A stretch of 32,953 bases of DNA, from positions 1 through 32,953 of the forward strand of contig LIAZ01000001.1 of NCBI GenBank assembly GCA_001438985.1, given 5' to 3'. A program made the position numbers and the translations under genes. Shown piece after piece: positions 13,371 through 21,188 of the stretch. Position 1 is the first letter of the stretch, and every line of letters starts with the position of its first letter. The DNA is from Acidimicrobium sp. BACL17 MAG-120823-bin42 (lineage in GTDB: Bacteria; Actinomycetota; Acidimicrobiia; Acidimicrobiales; Ilumatobacteraceae). The notes under the pieces were generated by a model. That model was not told the DNA's origin. It was given only the letters and a program-made list of their open reading frames with translations, and did not search any database.

Positions 13371-13431
13371 GATTAAGTTCCTAAACCCAGGGTGGCACCC
13401 GTCACCCGACTCCTAGGGGGAGAAAACAAAC

Positions 13432-14751
13432 ATGAAGAAAACAGCAAAGCGTCGCTTCGGTGCTCTCGTTGTTGGTCTCAGCCTCGTGGCTGCGGCTTGC
13501 GGCGGAAGCAGTGAAAGCGAAGATACAACAGCCACCGCTGGTGGCGAACTGGAAGGCATGAAGGGCACAATGCCACTCGTCGACCTTGGATCTGAGTTTA
13601 CAGATGGTTTGAACGCGTTCTGGACTGCCGCAGGCAATGCAGCGCTTGAAGACTATTCATATGCTGCAGAATCATTTGACTCAGTAATGCTTATTGCACT
13701 TGCAGCAGAAGCAGCACAGACTGATGGAAGCGCACTTGCTTCACAGATCCAAGCTGTTTCAGCCGAAGGTGAAACATGCAGTGACTTCGCAGCATGTGTT
13801 GCAATTATTGCAGCGGGCGGCGATGTTAACTACGAAGGTGCCTCTGGCCCACAGGACATGAACGGAAACGGCGAACCAATTAATGCTTCGTACGGCGTTC
13901 TTACCTTTGGTGCAGACAATCGCTTCAGTTACGAAGATGCTTCGTACGTTCTTGCTGATGCCCCAGCTTCGGACATTGTTCCAAATGCTGATGTAACGGT
14001 AGAGCGTCAAGGTGACGGCGTATTGAAGATCGGTTCAATGTTGCCAGAAACCGGTTCACTTGCATTCCTCGGACCACCAGAATTTGCTGGTGTTGAGTAC
14101 GCAATCAGCCTCATCAACGAGGCAGGCGGCGTCCTTGGCAATCCAGTTGAGTACGTTCAGGGTGACTCGGGTGACACAAGCACTGACACAGCAAGCACGA
14201 CCGTCGACCGTCTCCTCGGAGAAGGAGTTGACGCAATCATTGGTGCTGCTTCATCGTCAGTGTCGCTGACCGTAATTGACAAGATCACTGCTGCTGGTGT
14301 TATTCAATTCAGCCCAGCAAACACTTCAGACAAATTCTCAACGTATGCCGACAATGGTTTGTATTTCCGTACCGCTCCTGCTGACAAGCTTCAGGGTGCA
14401 GTGCTAGCAAACCTCATTGCAAGCGACGGTGCAGCAACTGTCTACATCATGGCGTTGGATGATGCTTACGGCACGGGTCTTGCAGACTCAATCGAAGCAA
14501 ACATCACCGCAGCAGGTGTGACTGTTCTTGGCAAAAAGATCTACGATCCAAAGGCCACAACATTTGATGCTGAAGTTGCAGAAATCAAGGATGCAAATCC
14601 AGATGCAATCATGCTCGTAACATTTGACGAAGGTTCACGTATCTTGCGCACCATGGTGGAGCAAGGCATTGGACCTAAGGCCAAGATGGTCTACGGCTGT
14701 GACGGCAACATGGGTAATGCACTCGGTCAGAACTTCGACTCGGGTAATTAA
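13432..14751 (+). CDS. ABC transporter solute-binding lipoprotein, Liv/HAAT (Peripla_BP_6-like) family, apparently circularly permuted
   Basis: Signal peptide with lipobox LVAAAC, and a strong RBS (GGGGGAG) 9 nt upstream. Residues 197-439 (LKIGSMLPETGSLAFLGPPEFAGV...) resemble the N-terminal two thirds of the family. Residues ~38-174 resemble its C-terminal third. Codon usage looks highly expressed, and the gene is followed by the only canonical terminator in the window. Confidence 0.85.
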   Translation: MKKTAKRRFGALVVGLSLVAAACGGSSESEDTTATAGGELEGMKGTMPLVDLGSEFTDGLNAFWTAAGNAALEDYSYAAESFDSVMLIALAAEAAQTDGSALASQIQAVSAEGETCSDFAACVAIIAAGGDVNYEGASGPQDMNGNGEPINASYGVLTFGADNRFSYEDASYVLADAPASDIVPNADVTVERQGDGVLKIGSMLPETGSLAFLGPPEFAGVEYAISLINEAGGVLGNPVEYVQGDSGDTSTDTASTTVDRLLGEGVDAIIGAASSSVSLTVIDKITAAGVIQFSPANTSDKFSTYADNGLYFRTAPADKLQGAVLANLIASDGAATVYIMALDDAYGTGLADSIEANITAAGVTVLGKKIYDPKATTFDAEVAEIKDANPDAIMLVTFDEGSRILRTMVEQGIGPKAKMVYGCDGNMGNALGQNFDSGN

Positions 14752-14773
14752 TCCCTGACTCTGTCAGTTTACG

Positions 14774-14810
14774 AAAAGGCCCCCAACCGTAAGGTTGGGG
14801 GCCTTTTTAT
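14774..14810. terminator. Bidirectional rho-independent terminator between the convergent SBP gene and the ABC ATPase gene
   Basis: AAAAGGCCCCCAACC-GTAA-GGTTGGGGGCCTTTT is a perfect ~13-15 bp GC-rich stem with a 4-nt loop. It is flanked by an A-run on the left and a T-run on the right, so it can terminate both strands. Confidence 0.9.
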
Positions 14811-14834
14811 TTGTCGAACTAACGATTAAATTAT

Positions 14835-15572
14835 TTAGCCGCCTGTCATCTTGGCCAAAGTACCCAGATATAACTTGATCACATTTGGATCCTCAAGTAG
14901 TTGTCGACCCGTACCCGTGTAGGCATTCTTGCCTTGATCAAGAACATATGCCCGATCGGTGACCTGCAAGCATCGACGAGCATTCTGTTCCACCATCAAG
15001 ATTGCAATTCCCTCAGCATTAATGCGTTTGCATTGAATAAATACCTCGTCTTGTAATGCAGGAGAAAGACCAGCGCTAGGTTCATCGAGCAACAGCAGTT
15101 TGGGCTCCATCATCAATGCGCGGCCCATCGCTACCATCTGACGTTCGCCGCCCGATAGCGATCCGGCCCGCTGGGCTGCGCGTTCGCGTAATTTTGGGAA
15201 TAACGCAGTGACATATTCGAAACGCTCCTCAAATACTTCTGGCTTTAGAAAACAGCCCATTTCGAGATTCTCTGACACAGTCAAACTCTGAAACACATTT
15301 TGCGTCTGTGGAACATAGCCAACACCTTGCTCTACAAGTTCGTGCGCTTTTCTGCCGGTGATATCGGACCCGAAGAACGTTACGGAGCCCGATCTCACAC
15401 CACATTGACCGAGAATCGCCTTAAGAACTGTGGACTTGCCGGCTCCATTTGGCCCAATAACACCAACGAACTCTCCCGCACGCACTTCAATATTGCAACC
15501 GTCCAAAATGTTGACCTCAGGCACGTAGCCAGCAACGAGTTCATCAACAATTAGTACTCGATCATCAGCCAC
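14835..15572 (-). CDS. ABC transporter ATP-binding protein (LivF-like)
   Basis: Walker A GPNGAGKST, signature LSGGERQ, Walker B LLLLDEPS. 245 aa. The substrate is not inferable from the sequence. Confidence 0.9.
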   Translation of the reverse strand: MADDRVLIVDELVAGYVPEVNILDGCNIEVRAGEFVGVIGPNGAGKSTVLKAILGQCGVRSGSVTFFGSDITGRKAHELVEQGVGYVPQTQNVFQSLTVSENLEMGCFLKPEVFEERFEYVTALFPKLRERAAQRAGSLSGGERQMVAMGRALMMEPKLLLLDEPSAGLSPALQDEVFIQCKRINAEGIAILMVEQNARRCLQVTDRAYVLDQGKNAYTGTGRQLLEDPNVIKLYLGTLAKMTGG

Positions 15573-16483
15573 TACATGTCCTCGCTATCAAGAAGAGACT
15601 TGCCCTGATGGCTACCAAGATATGCCTCAATAACAGCCTGATTAGACGCAATTTGCTCGGGAGTACCTTCAGCGATGATTCTCCCCTCAGCCATCACTAC
15701 CACCCAATCGGAAACATCGTGCACCATGTCCATGTCATGCTCGACAAATAACACCGTCATACCATCATCTCGTAATCCACGAATGTGTTCATTCAGATTT
15801 TGTTTCAGTGCGGGGTTGACGCCAGCCATGGGCTCGTCCAACATAACTAAACGGGGGTTTGTCATTAAGGCCCGTGCCATTTCGAGCAACTTACGCTGTC
15901 CACCAGACAACGTACCCGCATACTGATCTCGCATGTGGTCTAGTTTGAAACGCTTGAGCAACTCATCTGCCCGCTGTTCAATCATTGCTTCTTGCTTGCG
16001 GTAGCGAAAAGGAAACAAGCCATTCCACCATTTTTCGCCTGTTTGGTGCGTGGCGCCAAGTTTCATGTTCTCAATGACCGATAACTTCGTGAGACTCTTT
16101 GTCAATTGGAACGTCCGCACCATTCCAAGTCGTGCCGTACGATGAGCGACCACCTTTTCAAGATTCTTGCCATCGAACATCCACTCGCCTGCATCGGGCG
16201 AGTCGAACCCCGTAAGCAAGTTGAACAATGTTGTCTTACCGGCGCCGTTCGGTCCAATCAAGGCAGTTATCGAACCACGTTGCACCTCAAGATGAGCAAC
16301 ATCTACGGCTGTTACGCCACCGAAATTTCGCTTCACGCTATCGGCGACCAAAATTGGGTCGGGTTTGGAGACTCCAGGGGATGCATTTACCGATTGCAAG
16401 GCGGCTCGTGCACGCAATGCCAAATCTGAATACGACCGCTCAGCGACCATCAAGGGCCATCTCTTCCTTGCTTCCAAACACAC
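15572..16483 (-). CDS. ABC transporter ATP-binding protein (LivG-like)
   Basis: Walker A GPNGAGKTT, signature LSGGQRK, Walker B LVMLDEP, and a LivG-type C-terminal extension. The start is possibly at 16450 (MVAERS...), which reduces the overlap with the permease gene. Confidence 0.9.
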   Translation of the reverse strand: MCLEARKRWPLMVAERSYSDLALRARAALQSVNASPGVSKPDPILVADSVKRNFGGVTAVDVAHLEVQRGSITALIGPNGAGKTTLFNLLTGFDSPDAGEWMFDGKNLEKVVAHRTARLGMVRTFQLTKSLTKLSVIENMKLGATHQTGEKWWNGLFPFRYRKQEAMIEQRADELLKRFKLDHMRDQYAGTLSGGQRKLLEMARALMTNPRLVMLDEPMAGVNPALKQNLNEHIRGLRDDGMTVLFVEHDMDMVHDVSDWVVVMAEGRIIAEGTPEQIASNQAVIEAYLGSHQGKSLLDSEDM

Positions 16484-17444
16484 CTTGCGGACGGAAGGTC
16501 ATGAGCAGCATCAAACCGAGCCCAATCAACATGTAGTTAACGGGACCTACCTGTGATTTCTGAATCAGGCCAAAACCGAATACTTCAAAGGGCTGGTTCT
16601 TTGTTAGTTCGCGAAGGAAATTGTCACTGAACACGTACAAGGCCCAAAACATCATTGGTCCCACCACTGAGCCTCGAACCTTTGCAACTCCACCTAGAAC
16701 CAAAGCCGTCAAAATATAAAACGTGACGTCACGGCTGTAGTTATCAGGCTGGACAGATCCGCGATCGAGGGCAAAGATCATGCCTGAAAACATACCGATT
16801 GCGCCACCAATAATCAGCGATTGCATCTTGTACGAATACACGTTTTTGCCAAGACTGCGAACTGCATCTTCATCTTCTCTGATTGCTTTTACTACTCTGC
16901 CCCACGGACTCTTCATCAACATAAAGACCAATAACGAGAACAGCGCAACGAGTGACCAACCGACGATGATCGTCCAAAAGGAATATCCGCTGTAGCGGAA
17001 TGGGCGAATGCCATATTGTGCCGCAGGGTTAAACGGACTGAGATCCCTAAAGGATCTACTGAAACCGTTGATTCCATCGGAGCCACCAAAATATTCTTTG
17101 AACCGAACCGATCTCACGACAAGACGCACTATCTCGGCCATCGCGATCGTCACGATTGCTAAATAGTCGGCCCGCAATCGAAGTGTTGGGATACCAACCA
17201 GCAATCCAAGTATGACGACAAACACCAGTCCAATCAGAATTCCCCACCACAAACCAACTCCAAAATATTGAGTGGTCATTCCAAGTCCATACGCACCACA
17301 GGCCATAAATGCTGCTTGGCCAAAATTGAGCAGGCCGGTGTAGCCAAATTGCACGTTGAGTCCAATGGCAGCAAGGGCGAAATACGCAGCGTCAATTCCG
17401 AACAATGCAGCGACAGTATTTTCGAGAATTTTGATGATGTCCAT
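16440..17444 (-). CDS. ABC transporter permease (LivM-like)
   Basis: 334-aa polytopic membrane protein with GYTGLLNFGQAAF, typical of HAAT-family LivM permeases. Confidence 0.9.
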   Translation of the reverse strand: MDIIKILENTVAALFGIDAAYFALAAIGLNVQFGYTGLLNFGQAAFMACGAYGLGMTTQYFGVGLWWGILIGLVFVVILGLLVGIPTLRLRADYLAIVTIAMAEIVRLVVRSVRFKEYFGGSDGINGFSRSFRDLSPFNPAAQYGIRPFRYSGYSFWTIIVGWSLVALFSLLVFMLMKSPWGRVVKAIREDEDAVRSLGKNVYSYKMQSLIIGGAIGMFSGMIFALDRGSVQPDNYSRDVTFYILTALVLGGVAKVRGSVVGPMMFWALYVFSDNFLRELTKNQPFEVFGFGLIQKSQVGPVNYMLIGLGLMLLMTFRPQGVFGSKEEMALDGR

Positions 17445-17447
17445 TGA

Positions 17448-18767
17448 TCAACCAATCCTCTGTTTGCGGCCAAGAATGCCTTGCGGCCGAACCACAAGCA
17501 CAATGATCAGAATAAGTAAAGCAGGGGCATTCTTCAGTTCGGCCGGTACCACCAAGGATGCGAGTTCGACAAGTACGCCCACAAAAAAACCGCCGATCAG
17601 TGCTCCATATGCAGACCCGAGTCCACCGAGTGTGATGCCTGCAAACATCAAAAAGATCAGCCTAGATCCCATCTCAAATCCGACTTGTTCATCAAGTCCG
17701 CGAAACAATCCTCCCATGGCAGCGAGGGCGCCTCCCGCAAACCACACAATGCGGATGATCTTCTGCGTATCAATACCCGTGCTCGATGCGAGGTCAGGAT
17801 TATCTGATACCGCACGAATTGCTTTACCCGTGCGGGATCTTTGCAAGTACAAGGCAACGAGCACCAAAACGATAAGCGAGATGATCGCCGTTGTTAAATC
17901 ACGCATCGTGATGCTTACCGGCCCGAACCTTTTAGCTACTTGCAAACTAAAGTCATCAAGTGGTCTAGTTCGACCTCCGAACTGATACAGGTACATGTTT
18001 CTCAACATGATCGACAAGCCAACTGATACGACCAACTGCGAGATCAATCCGATACCACGCTTACGCAATTTGGCAAAAATGATGGCATTCATCGCAAGCC
18101 CCAACACCCCACCTAGGGCGATCACCAAAGGTGCAGCGATCAATAACGGAACACCCAGCAAAACGTTAAACCAAAAGGCAATTAATCCACCAAATGTCAC
18201 CATTTCGCCGTGGGCAAAATTTGTCAAACCTGTTGTGCCAAAGATCAGTGAAAGGCCAACTGAACTAATCGCGATGATCAGCCCCAAACGGACTCCATCA
18301 ACCAGTCGCTGGGCTAGTCGATCAACAAGTGGCGCACCTGTTGCTGTGCTGGAACCCGCAAAGAATGTGACCCGCTTTGAATTAGTGGTAAACGAATCTT
18401 TCTCAATCGTTGCTTGTGTCTTACTCTCATCAATCAATGTCACATCATCTGGCAATGTAGAGACATCAATCGTCACAACATAAGAGTCCTTGGATGGCAC
18501 GGAGATGGTGACTGTTCCGCTCGAGTCCGTGACACCTTCCCCGACCATGCTCCCAGTCGATGTTGTGATGGCTATCGACACTCCGGACACGGGGTTTTTT
18601 GTCGCCACACCATCATCAATGGTCTGATTTTGCACTGAGGCCACGATAGAAAGCCCGGACTCTTCAGCTTGAGCCGCTGAAGAAAAGGCAAACACAGATG
18701 CAGCGACAATGGCAAAGGCCTTACACAATGCAATCCAGTTCGTACGAGCTGTGGCTGTTTTGATCAC
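17448..18767 (-). CDS. ABC transporter permease (LivH-like) with N-terminal signal peptide and extracytoplasmic beta-sandwich-like domain
   Basis: The canonical LivH core starts near LVDRLAQRLVDGV...GLTNFAHGE. It is preceded by ~158 residues: a signal-like segment (WIALCKAFAIVAASVFAFSSAAQA) followed by VSGVSIAITTSTGSMVGEGVTDSSGTVTISVPSKDSYVVTIDV. The preferred start is the GTG at 18767 (GGGGA 4 nt upstream). The ATG at 18806 (track start) is an alternative. Confidence 0.85.
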   Translation of the reverse strand: MIKTATARTNWIALCKAFAIVAASVFAFSSAAQAEESGLSIVASVQNQTIDDGVATKNPVSGVSIAITTSTGSMVGEGVTDSSGTVTISVPSKDSYVVTIDVSTLPDDVTLIDESKTQATIEKDSFTTNSKRVTFFAGSSTATGAPLVDRLAQRLVDGVRLGLIIAISSVGLSLIFGTTGLTNFAHGEMVTFGGLIAFWFNVLLGVPLLIAAPLVIALGGVLGLAMNAIIFAKLRKRGIGLISQLVVSVGLSIMLRNMYLYQFGGRTRPLDDFSLQVAKRFGPVSITMRDLTTAIISLIVLVLVALYLQRSRTGKAIRAVSDNPDLASSTGIDTQKIIRIVWFAGGALAAMGGLFRGLDEQVGFEMGSRLIFLMFAGITLGGLGSAYGALIGGFFVGVLVELASLVVPAELKNAPALLILIIVLVVRPQGILGRKQRIG

Positions 18768-18792
18768 TTGGTCCCCAATTATGCGATTCGTA

Positions 18793-19677
18793 CTAGTCAA
18801 GCACATTGAGCCTTGTAGTGGGAAGAAAAACTGCCAAAACAGCCAACCACACCATTACTGATCCCGCGATATGAATCGCTACAAGATGGGCAGGAACGCC
18901 AGCAAAGTATTGCACGTAGCCAATAAATCCTTGAGATACCAAAGAAAATAGAAGAAATTGAATGCGGGCTCCCTCAGTGCCCCATCGCTCGACAGATCGT
19001 CGAGCGCGGATCGCTAACAACACTGAAATCGCAACGGTGATCCACACCGCAATCGAATGCAACTGCGTAGCAAACCGAACAGATATATCGAGTCGCGTGA
19101 CAGCCTCTGAGCCCGAATGTGGACCGCTACCCGTCACCACCGTTCCCAGAACAACGCTGATCATCGCTGAGCTAAAAAGCGCCTTTTTCAGTGCAACATC
19201 CTGTCGGTCAATAGGCGGTACTCCACTAGACAGGGTTCTGGTCCGATTGAGCAACACAACGGCTGCAGTTACCAACATAAATGACACCAAAAAGTGGACC
19301 ATATTGGTCCAAGGATTAAGACCCGTCAGTACGACATAGGCACCAATAATTACCTGCGCGATAACCCCAATGACCAAGAGGATCGCATTATTGGTGATCT
19401 TCCTCACTGGTTTTGCTAACAGTAAAGACAAGGCAACAGCACCAGCTACCGACAATGCAACAACGCCAGTGAACAGACGATTGATCTGCTCAATTGCTGC
19501 GTGACCACTGGAAACATCGATGAAACGAGTGTTGTTGCAATTGGGCCAATCCGAACAGCCAAGCCCCGAACCTGTAAGGCGAACGAGTGACCCTGAAATG
19601 ATGATCACAATAAGAGCACCTAGGGCCAACCATACGGCCCGTTCATAGGCATTCACGGATACCTGGGGCCTGCGCAC
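18793..19677 (-). CDS. ctaA: Heme A synthase (COX15/CtaA family)
   Basis: 294-aa polytopic membrane protein with GSGLGCSDWPNC in the first loop and conserved His in the TM helices. Confidence 0.8.
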   Translation of the reverse strand: MRRPQVSVNAYERAVWLALGALIVIIISGSLVRLTGSGLGCSDWPNCNNTRFIDVSSGHAAIEQINRLFTGVVALSVAGAVALSLLLAKPVRKITNNAILLVIGVIAQVIIGAYVVLTGLNPWTNMVHFLVSFMLVTAAVVLLNRTRTLSSGVPPIDRQDVALKKALFSSAMISVVLGTVVTGSGPHSGSEAVTRLDISVRFATQLHSIAVWITVAISVLLAIRARRSVERWGTEGARIQFLLFSLVSQGFIGYVQYFAGVPAHLVAIHIAGSVMVWLAVLAVFLPTTRLNVLD

Positions 19678-19868
19678 ATCCGCAGAGTAGCCCTCAATCC
19701 AAGGAATTCACCGTCGTATCTCAACACTTCAGGTGGTCAAATAGGACTGAAATCACCATTTACTCACTCTTAGTGGTTGCAACAACATTATTAGTGAAAT
19801 AATCCTCAAGTTTTCCCTTCTGGAACCGATCCCTAATGCGGATCTCACACCAGAAAGTCAGGGAAATC

Positions 19869-21188
19869 ATGAACACATCAGTAATTCGCAAAGCAGTTGT
19901 CGGATTGTCGCTTTCCGTTATCGGATCGATGAGCATGTCAACGTTGACAGTTACAGCGGCGGATGCACAAGTTGTCAGTGCAAAGCCACTTGCTCTTCCT
20001 CGCATGGGCGAATCAGGACCAGAGGTCATTCGACTTCAACAGGCAATTGTGGCTCGTGGTTTCACAATCAAAGGTGGCATCGATGGCTCATTTGGAGCTT
20101 CAACTCGATCGGCCTTGAGGTCATTACAGAAGGTCGCTGGATTTAGGGCAACGGGGAATCTTGACTCCCGCACCGCGAAATTTCTTGGTCTTGTAGATGT
20201 GACACCCCTATCGAAGAATTCACTTCCGACTATTGGAGCATCTGGTGATGCCGTGTGGTCGATACAACAAGCGTTGATTAATAGTGGCGTAACTGTGAAG
20301 GGTGGTGCCGATGGCAAGTTTGGACTTGCAACATCAATCGCAATTGGCCGATTTCAAAGTGCTCGAGGTTTGAGAGTTACGAAATCTGTCGACGAAGCAA
20401 CCGCAATCGCATTGGGCCTTCTCGCAGCGCCTGCACCAAAGGCATCTGCCACGAAAACCGTTGTCGCTGCAGGCGTAGTTGCGCCAGTAGCAACACCTGT
20501 TGCAGCAGCGGCCAGTATCACCATTGACTCCTTGCCGGTACGTGGCCAGACGAGTGAAGCTGTTCGTACCGTGCAACATGCATTGTTGGCAGCGGGCATA
20601 GAAGTCAAGGGTGGCGCAGATGCTGTGTTTGGCGTTGCCACTTCGGTAGCAATAGGAAAATTCCAATCAGTGAAGGGACTTAACGTCACCACGGCACTCG
20701 ATGCAAACACTGCTGCAGCACTTGGACTCATCCCAACACTTGCAGAGTTAGGCCTTCCAACGCTTCAGGCTTTCCCGATGCAAGGCCGTTGTTCTTTCTC
20801 TGATTCATGGCACGCTCCGCGAGGAAGTGGACGTGTCCATGAAGGGGTAGACATCGTTGGTGCTCGCGGCCTGGCAATCTATGCGGTGGTTGACGGAATC
20901 ATCACACGAATGTTGTCGGGCGGAGCATTGAGTGGAAACTCAATTCGCCTTACCGCACCAGATGGAACGTACTTTTTCTACGCTCACCTTGATGGCTTTG
21001 CAGCAGGCTTGGCTGTAGGTCAGACCGTGCGTGCTGGCCAAGTTATTGGATACAACGGTTCGACTGGAACGTCAACGCCCCATGTCCACTTTGAAGTACA
21101 CCCCCAGGGTGGGGCCGCTGTCAACCCTTACCCACTCGTGAAGGCAGTCGACGCATGCAACAACACGAGCATTCCTGCTCAGCCGTAA
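19869..21188 (+). CDS. Secreted peptidoglycan hydrolase: three PG_binding_1-like repeats + M23 (LytM-type) metallopeptidase domain
   Basis: Signal peptide MNTSVIRKAVVGLSLSVIGSMSMSTLTVTAADA, with RBS AGGGA 5 nt upstream of the ATG at 19869 (track start 19836). M23 motifs are HEGVDI, HLDGF and TPHVHFEVH. Confidence 0.9.
   Translation: MNTSVIRKAVVGLSLSVIGSMSMSTLTVTAADAQVVSAKPLALPRMGESGPEVIRLQQAIVARGFTIKGGIDGSFGASTRSALRSLQKVAGFRATGNLDSRTAKFLGLVDVTPLSKNSLPTIGASGDAVWSIQQALINSGVTVKGGADGKFGLATSIAIGRFQSARGLRVTKSVDEATAIALGLLAAPAPKASATKTVVAAGVVAPVATPVAAAASITIDSLPVRGQTSEAVRTVQHALLAAGIEVKGGADAVFGVATSVAIGKFQSVKGLNVTTALDANTAAALGLIPTLAELGLPTLQAFPMQGRCSFSDSWHAPRGSGRVHEGVDIVGARGLAIYAVVDGIITRMLSGGALSGNSIRLTAPDGTYFFYAHLDGFAAGLAVGQTVRAGQVIGYNGSTGTSTPHVHFEVHPQGGAAVNPYPLVKAVDACNNTSIPAQP
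19998..20729 (+). repeat. Three intragenic copies of a ~65-aa peptidoglycan-binding module
   Basis: Copy 1 is GESGPEVIRLQQAIVARGFTIKGGIDGSFGASTRSAL...GL. Copy 2 is GASGDAVWSIQQALINSGVTVKGGADGKFGLATSIAI...GL. Copy 3 is GQTSEAVRTVQHALLAAGIEVKGGADAVFGVATSVAI...GL. Copies 2 and 3 are separated by an Ala/Pro/Val-rich linker. Confidence 0.75.

Follow-up and report, generated by a model that had tools for sequence, protein, structure and literature searches.

The window analysed here, by which we mean the whole 32,953-nt stretch of contig LIAZ01000001.1 from Acidimicrobium sp. BACL17 MAG-120823-bin42, contains an open reading frame (ORF) at 13432..14751 on the + strand that encodes a lipoprotein of 439 amino acids (aa). 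This gene raises the question of whether a solute-binding protein whose usual beginning appears only at residue 198, and whose usual C-terminal third stands at its front, is a functional protein with a rearranged chain or the accidental join of two ordinary gene fragments. A sequence-only reading of this DNA had claimed the ORF, which exists on that strand and with that length, and had proposed that its product is a circularly permuted binding lipoprotein of the Liv/HAAT type.

The analyses described below point to a functional binding protein of type I (cluster B, LivJ/LivK-like) that is anchored by a lipid and circularly permuted, and which is most likely the receptor of the adjacent LivF-G-M-H importer and most likely arose by duplication, fusion and trimming; we put the probability of this overall reading at about 0.88. 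The chain would start about 8 residues before the third hinge crossover, pass through the canonical C-terminal third and a 23-residue linker, and finish with the canonical N-terminal two thirds. The parts of the gene product are as follows; pLDDT is the predicted local distance difference test score of the structural model.

13432..13500, + strand: residues 1-23, signal peptide with lipobox (LVAAA-C23); the n-region is basic, and a hydrophobic core precedes AAAC; pLDDT below 50
13501..13542, + strand: residues 24-37, flexible tether behind the lipobox; T, E, A and P are abundant in homologues, and the model shows disorder
13543..13953, + strand: residues 38-174, the transposed segment; homology to the canonical LivJ-type C-terminal third according to alignments with the canonical relative P0138, PF01094 and the LivJ structure 4gnr; pLDDT about 86-97
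13954..14022, + strand: linker of 23 residues (175-197) from the old C-terminus to the old N-terminus; fixed length, invariant positions, pLDDT 88-96
14023..14751, + strand: segment homologous to the canonical N-terminal two thirds, residues 198-439 and the stop codon, according to PF13458, P0138 and the LivJ-like top matches of Foldseek

Order of the protein chain

Only Peripla_BP_6, ANF_receptor and Peripla_BP_5 matched the window protein in Pfam. The PF13458 (Peripla_BP_6) match covered residues 198-426 only, corresponding to profile positions 2-230 of 343, with a score of 135.5 bits against a cut-off of 31.7. PF01094, which scored 97 bits on the whole protein, and PF13433 likewise covered only the C-terminal part. 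The window protein stops 13 residues past the PF13458 match, whereas members of the family normally run more than 100 residues further. NCBIfam models for LivJ-type and urea-binding proteins matched the same C-terminal part only, and scored far under their cut-offs.

When residues 1-197 were scanned alone, PF01094 positions 271-350 of 353 were found at residues 73-159 (E = 9.8e-6), with a score of 25.3 bits, just under the cut-off of 25.4. Two PF13458 matches with swapped coordinates had been expected from the sequence; a single one was obtained, and the swapped second match appeared with PF01094 and with closer relatives.

BLASTP comparison with the canonical relative P0138 (445 aa) aligned residues 185-438 with P0138 residues 50-312 (58% identity, E = 2e-89) and residues 38-169 with P0138 residues 312-439 (41% identity, E = 1e-28). 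Both segments matched the same canonical protein in swapped order. The cut was exact: G38 and G438 both mapped to P0138 residue 312.

Residues 38-250, which span the junction, served as a query against 1.84 billion cluster representatives. The search yielded many canonical proteins of approximately 420-450 aa in which the last 130 residues of the target corresponded to the first 130 residues of the query, at 40-54% identity. Swapped coordinates were also obtained when the family profile was compared with the PDB: on 4gnr, profile positions 207-441 corresponded to chain residues 7-236, and profile positions 42-112 to chain residues 240-307.

The re-ordered construct [196-439]+[33-176] produced a single colinear match to PF13458 (positions 2-314) and to PF01094 (positions 6-349), and was colinear with 4gnr residues 8-318. 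The native chain did not have the colinear full-length Peripla_BP_6 order, and colinearity was observed only after this artificial re-ordering.

The swapped profile coordinates, the exact junction on P0138 and the colinearity restored by re-ordering identify the window protein, at the level of its sequence, as a circularly permuted Liv/HAAT-type binding lipoprotein; the permutation is real and far beyond chance. The same three lines of evidence bear out the order read from the letters, with the normal start at residue ~198 and the C-terminal third at ~38-174. Since profile annotation spans only two thirds of permuted proteins, the truncated domain match seen here should not be taken to indicate a fragment or a pseudogene.

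Conservation of the permuted form

An unusual order, together with a Pfam match spanning only two thirds of the protein, could reflect an artefact of assembly or gene calling, namely a chimera made of two pieces of ordinary binding-protein genes. Several observations speak against such an artefact. The identical protein was found on 16 contigs from four sources. Among species-representative genomes, 574 candidate stretches were found to encode a relative, and the best 80 loci of these were retained. The permuted order was present in all of the retained loci (80/80), which represent independent species-level genomes of Ilumatobacteraceae, Microthrixaceae and other Acidimicrobiia; some of them lie on contigs of 1-2.5 Mb.

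Roughly 110 full-length homologues among the matches listed, down to 62% identity, were all colinear with the window protein over the whole query. The best 150 representatives of 50%-identity clusters included 61 permuted proteins, 66 canonical ones and 2 tandem doubles.

The ratio of nonsynonymous to synonymous substitution rates (dN/dS) was calculated pairwise between the window gene and five relatives, segment by segment. Values of 0.05-0.13 were obtained for residues 198-439 and of 0.13-0.31 for the linker. For residues 38-174 the ratio was about 0.17 in three of the five comparisons and 0.38 in one, and was not computable in the remaining one. All segments of the window gene are under purifying selection.

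With these results, and with a predicted model that is confident and compact, the chance that the order is an artefact of assembly or gene calling is negligible. An assembly chimera, against which the sequence-only reading had itself cautioned, is effectively excluded by the 16 contigs with identical protein and by the common order of the 80 loci. The permuted form is real and is maintained across many freshwater and soil Acidimicrobiia.

Fold, topology and cut site

AlphaFold2 was run with a 32-sequence alignment. The model of the window protein had a mean pLDDT of 84.6 and a predicted template modelling score (pTM) of 0.83. Values of pLDDT below 50 were confined to the signal peptide and tether (residues 1-35) and a short loop (207-211); the linker (175-197) was modelled without helix or strand.

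In a Foldseek comparison with the PDB the top matches were LivJ-like proteins (leucine-bound 4n0q, 3ipc and 4gnr), with a probability of 1.0, about 245 aligned columns and target-normalised template modelling (TM) scores of about 0.55-0.59. Foldseek is a sequential aligner and covered two thirds of the chain only; such scores are what an aligner of this kind can attain when a third of the residues stand in a different order. The model predicts that the Venus-flytrap fold, with its two alpha/beta lobes, is retained. The comparison of the family profile with the PDB found no chain colinear with the whole profile, so that no structure of the permuted topology appears to have been solved so far in the Peripla_BP_6 subfamily.

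The cut site was mapped with HMMER alignments to 3ipc and 4gnr and with the E. coli LivJ sequence. The C-terminal YGCDGNMGNALGQNFDSGN corresponded to LivJ MGPEGVANVSLSNIAGESA, with D424 at the Glu226 position, and the N-terminal GGELEGMKGTMP corresponded to LivJ GESAEGLLVTKP. The cut corresponds to about LivJ residue 241 and to P0138 residue 312. A MAFFT alignment with E. coli LivJ and LivK was also tried for this mapping and was set aside: it misregistered LivJ residues 200-280, pairing Glu226 with K416, and the HMMER alignments were used instead.

For LivJ we take lobe 1 to comprise residues 1-120 and about 250-326, and lobe 2 the rest. With these boundaries the new termini would fall within lobe 2. 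They would stand some 8 residues ahead of the third hinge crossover, and not in the hinge region itself, where the sequence-only reading had placed them. Because the new termini would be in lobe 2, the lipid tether would be attached to lobe 2 and not to lobe 1. Counting the linker as one crossing, the chain would pass between the lobes four times, compared with the canonical three; of the canonical crossings, two would fall in the first segment and one in the second. An effect of these changes on open/closed dynamics or on docking, which the sequence-only reading had raised, would be speculative.

The Ala/Pro/Asp-rich linker had been regarded as a former post-lipobox tether. In an alignment of 32 homologues its length of 23 residues was fixed, and A175, P178, S180, V190, R192, G194 and G196 were invariant. 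With a pLDDT of about 88-96 and the dN/dS values given above, we regard it as a fourth connection, ordered and conserved, rather than as the relic of a loose tether.

The same alignment showed Cys23 and Gly24 to be invariant; the lipobox preceding C23, at the end of the signal peptide, reads MKKTAKRRFGALVVGLSLVAAA. A signal peptide that ends in a lipobox with an invariant cysteine makes the window protein a predicted lipoprotein. The length of the post-lipobox tether varied from roughly 10 to 60 residues across the homologues, which suggests that the exact lipid-anchor point may matter little.

Two cysteines of the transposed segment, C116 and C122 (GE.C.....C), are invariant and are present in canonical actinobacterial relatives too. 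They probably form a disulfide in the extracytoplasmic window protein.

Origin of the permutation

Three single lipoproteins, P0151 (813 aa), P0181 (1034 aa) and P0250 (856 aa), were found to contain two complete tandem LivJ-type modules. The modules are 68-81% identical to each other and are joined by junctions of about 20-30 residues, similar in length to the linker of the window protein. These three proteins are candidate analogues of a duplication intermediate; P0181 carries an additional C-terminal YceI-like domain. Tandem paralogous genes occur as well, at the locus L120 (2526-5133), where a canonical gene lies directly upstream of a permuted gene of the window type on the same strand.

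The permutation would have started when a canonical gene was duplicated in tandem and the copies were fused in frame. Loss of the first two thirds of copy 1 and of the last third of copy 2 would then have left the observed order. Such a course of duplication, fusion and trimming is the most likely origin. The earlier suggestion of tandem duplication followed by trimming is made plausible by the three fused doubles and by the second cut described below; it is not proven by them.

The second cut defines a permuted form which we call type B, the window form being type A. In type B the chain ends ...GIGPxx, and a 22-residue VYGxDGNMxN piece is found at the N-terminus; the cut is located about 22 residues upstream of the type A cut, and the strand with the residue equivalent to Asp/Glu226 is at the N-terminus. 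Type B members include the proteins P0134, P0146, P0236 and others, and the loci L080, L125 and L127. Six further loci considered as type B were rejected, being type A genes cut by contig ends.

A neighbour-joining tree was constructed from concatenated LivF-G-M-H sequences. Two type B loci grouped with 17 canonical loci with 100% bootstrap, and the window fell into a clade of 49 type A loci with a bootstrap of 82. A few deep type A lineages were interleaved with canonical ones, with weak support. Types A and B are probably separate outcomes. A neighbour-joining tree of the re-ordered binding proteins was discarded for counting origins: it was poorly resolved, the permuted proteins, type A and type B did not form single clades, and 3-11 pure groups were obtained across 200 bootstraps.

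It is possible, at somewhat less than even odds, that one orthologous Acidimicrobiia locus was permuted more than once, with cuts ~22 residues apart. The locus would then offer a natural series of Venus-flytrap receptors, comprising the canonical form, the fused form and two permuted forms, each of which docks to a homologous importer.

The N-terminal module could also have been acquired from a different gene, as a fragment of a paralogue fused to a truncated binding protein. This would fit the lower similarity of the N-terminal segment to P0138 when compared with the C-terminal segment (41% vs 58%) and the occurrence of tandem paralogues such as the pair at L120, and a like origin has been suggested for the permuted part of TpMglB-2, which is discussed below. 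The C-terminal third is, however, less conserved in canonical relatives too. Both segments retrieve the same canonical relatives, the junction is exact to the residue, and full tandem fusions of near-identical copies exist. We consider such an acquisition unlikely and retain duplication, fusion and trimming as the preferred route.

Putative binding pocket and probable role in transport

In LivJ we take Ser79, Ala100, Thr102, Tyr150, Tyr202 and Glu226 to be the amino-acid-binding positions. S275, A296, T298 and Y346 of the window protein aligned with Ser79, Ala100, Thr102 and Tyr150, and all four were invariant among the 32 homologues. D424 aligned with the Glu226 position in the HMMER alignments to both 3ipc and 4gnr. 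Judged by these positions, an amino-acid-type pocket would be kept, and the ligand is likely an amino acid or a similar small molecule.

The genes of the putative importer follow the binding-protein gene in convergent orientation:

14835..15572, - strand: LivF-like ATPase; ORF, kept beside the binding-protein gene in related loci
15572..16483, - strand: LivG-like ATPase; ORF, synteny
16440..17444, - strand: LivM-like permease; PF02653, 31% identity to E. coli LivM
17448..18806, - strand: LivH-like permease; N-terminal signal sequence and additional beta-rich domain of ~110 aa; PF02653 at 168-436, 31% identity to E. coli LivH over 166-449

Convergent LivF-G-M-H genes were found at every related locus with enough flank, and the upstream GuaB-like and Sua5 genes were usually conserved as well. 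In loci retrieved with P0138, canonical binding-protein genes hold the same position beside homologous transporters; at three of these (L113-L115) the canonical gene is located between Sua5 and LivF neighbours, with the GuaB-like gene and CtaA also there. The permuted and canonical genes behave as positional orthologues. Because a canonical binding protein holds the same position in some relatives, the permuted protein is most likely the working receptor of the adjacent LivF-G-M-H importer, and this positional orthology is the strongest argument at hand for that role.

The permuted protein might have left transport and act mainly as a sensor or as the binding protein of another system, its position beside livFGMH being merely inherited. 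The gene is convergent to the operon and outside it, and the permuted module occurs in fusions with Ser/Thr kinases (P0123, P0167) and with other anchors (P0118), as would be expected in that case. We find this improbable, as no other binding-protein gene was present within the 8-kb flanks at 157 of the 160 related loci, canonical orthologues occupy the same position, and the strong codon bias of the gene fits an abundant uptake receptor. The role of importer receptor is the one we prefer.

In five proteins (P0123, P0167, P0164, P0207 and P0118) the permuted module stands behind Ser/Thr kinase domains, Bmp/PnrA-type binding proteins, or a zinc ribbon with a transmembrane anchor. Judging from these domain arrangements, the permuted module seems to serve for sensing or binding in combination with anchors of several kinds.

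Several observations weigh against the overall reading. None of the 150 cluster representatives had the order N-C-N, or C-N-C of one family, of an intermediate trimmed in part. The termini overlap by at most 1-2 residues, so that the duplication route is not directly recorded in the window gene. Around the cut the MAFFT alignment to LivJ cannot be relied on, and LivJ Tyr202 is replaced by Phe398 in the window protein. Finally, the binding-protein gene is convergent to the transporter operon and is not co-transcribed with it.

Signs of expression

Two further features were identified around the binding-protein gene:

13416..13422, + strand: Shine-Dalgarno-like GGGGGAG, 9 nt before the ATG, read from the sequence
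14773..14808, no strand assigned: 16-bp GC-rich hairpin with A-run and T-run flanks, between the convergent binding-protein and livF genes

The binding-protein gene had the lowest effective number of codons (Nc) among the 26 window genes checked, 43.1 compared with 51-61. RNA folding of 14752-14834 gave -37.9 kcal/mol (z = -7.4). The hairpin at 14773..14808, which was missed by a simple consensus terminator scan and confirmed by RNA folding, is likely a bidirectional intrinsic terminator. The codon bias, the Shine-Dalgarno sequence and the terminator all fit high expression, and the window gene is probably highly expressed. The ribosome binding site, codon bias and terminator that had been pointed out from the letters were all found again, as indirect signs of expression.

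Neighbouring genes

The LivH homologue has a signal-like hydrophobic stretch at residues 23-46, followed by the beta-rich region of ~110 aa, with weak Ig-like and CarboxypepD_reg matches at 67-113. E. coli LivH is without the N-terminal extension seen ahead of the permease core (166-449) of this homologue. A connection between this extension and the permutation was considered and rejected, as the extension is conserved in related loci with canonical as well as with permuted binding proteins.

A CtaA/COX15-like gene at 18793-19677 (-) shares 14 nt with the start of the LivH-like gene and is kept in many related loci. A divergent gene after it, at 19836-21188 (+), encodes three peptidoglycan-binding repeats and an M23 peptidase domain, and is also kept in many related loci.

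Comparison with known binding proteins

Canonical LivJ/LivK proteins, such as E. coli LivJ and S. pneumoniae LivJ (4gnr), are homologous to the window protein over its whole mature chain. They share with it the predicted two-lobed fold, the aligned Ser, Ala/Thr, Tyr and acidic positions of a putative pocket, and LivHMGF-type partner genes. The window chain differs from them in being rotated, with the C-terminal third first and a new 23-residue linker joining the old ends. By homology, it would also differ in having its anchor and termini on the second lobe and four crossings between the lobes, compared with three.

The closest precedent is TpMglB-2 (Tp0684) of Treponema pallidum, which its crystal structure showed to be a type I binding protein in circularly permuted form, with a fourth crossover that leads into an extended linker (PMC4990184). 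A 'Type Ic / Cluster Bc' class, consisting mostly of tethered proteins of spirochaetes and Gram-positive bacteria, was proposed on that occasion (PMC4990184). TpMglB-2 retained ligand binding and closure, and its family was described as widespread in monoderm bacteria (PMC4990184). Its first three N-lobe strands were moved to the C-terminus, and the permuted parts are 13% identical to EcMglB (PMC4990184).

The window protein and TpMglB-2 are both natural circular permutations of a type I / cluster B protein and both tethered lipoproteins, and a fourth crossover would be common to both. TpMglB-2 belongs to the sugar-binding MglB subfamily, whereas the window protein belongs to the amino-acid-binding Peripla_BP_6 branch. 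In TpMglB-2 the first three strands went to the back of the chain; in the window protein the last third came to the front, and the cut would be in the second lobe. Similarity to EcMglB is very low in the permuted parts of TpMglB-2, in contrast to the strong homology (E = 1e-28) of the transposed segment of the window protein, which also has canonical positional orthologues.

The general model of permutation by duplication agrees with the window gene in that a single canonical gene accounts for its two halves, with a junction exact to the residue, tandem fusions occur, and two complementary cuts are found. It differs in that neither a partly trimmed intermediate nor a clear terminal overlap was found, and the route in the window gene is our inference. 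A literature search, whose coverage left out most subscription journals so that absence is not proof, found no description of a permuted LivJ-type or Peripla_BP_6 protein.

Significance

The binding proteins of ABC importers are a standard system for studying ligand-induced closure and are popular as scaffolds for biosensors. Among them natural circular permutation is rare, and TpMglB-2 is the only documented case that we found. The window protein indicates that the amino-acid-binding branch also tolerates permutation, at a site different from that in TpMglB-2. For annotation, a truncated Pfam match in permuted binding proteins is not equivalent to a fragment or a pseudogene.

The permuted receptor is probably highly expressed, and its hosts are abundant bacteria of fresh water and soil. 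Canonical orthologues, a second cut and tandem fusions, all beside homologous transporters, allow chain connectivity to be compared with hinge motion, anchoring and docking, and the family offers a concrete test of the permutation-by-duplication model. If one locus was indeed permuted repeatedly, we speculate that the fourth connection and the moved anchor might change the hinge dynamics of the receptor.

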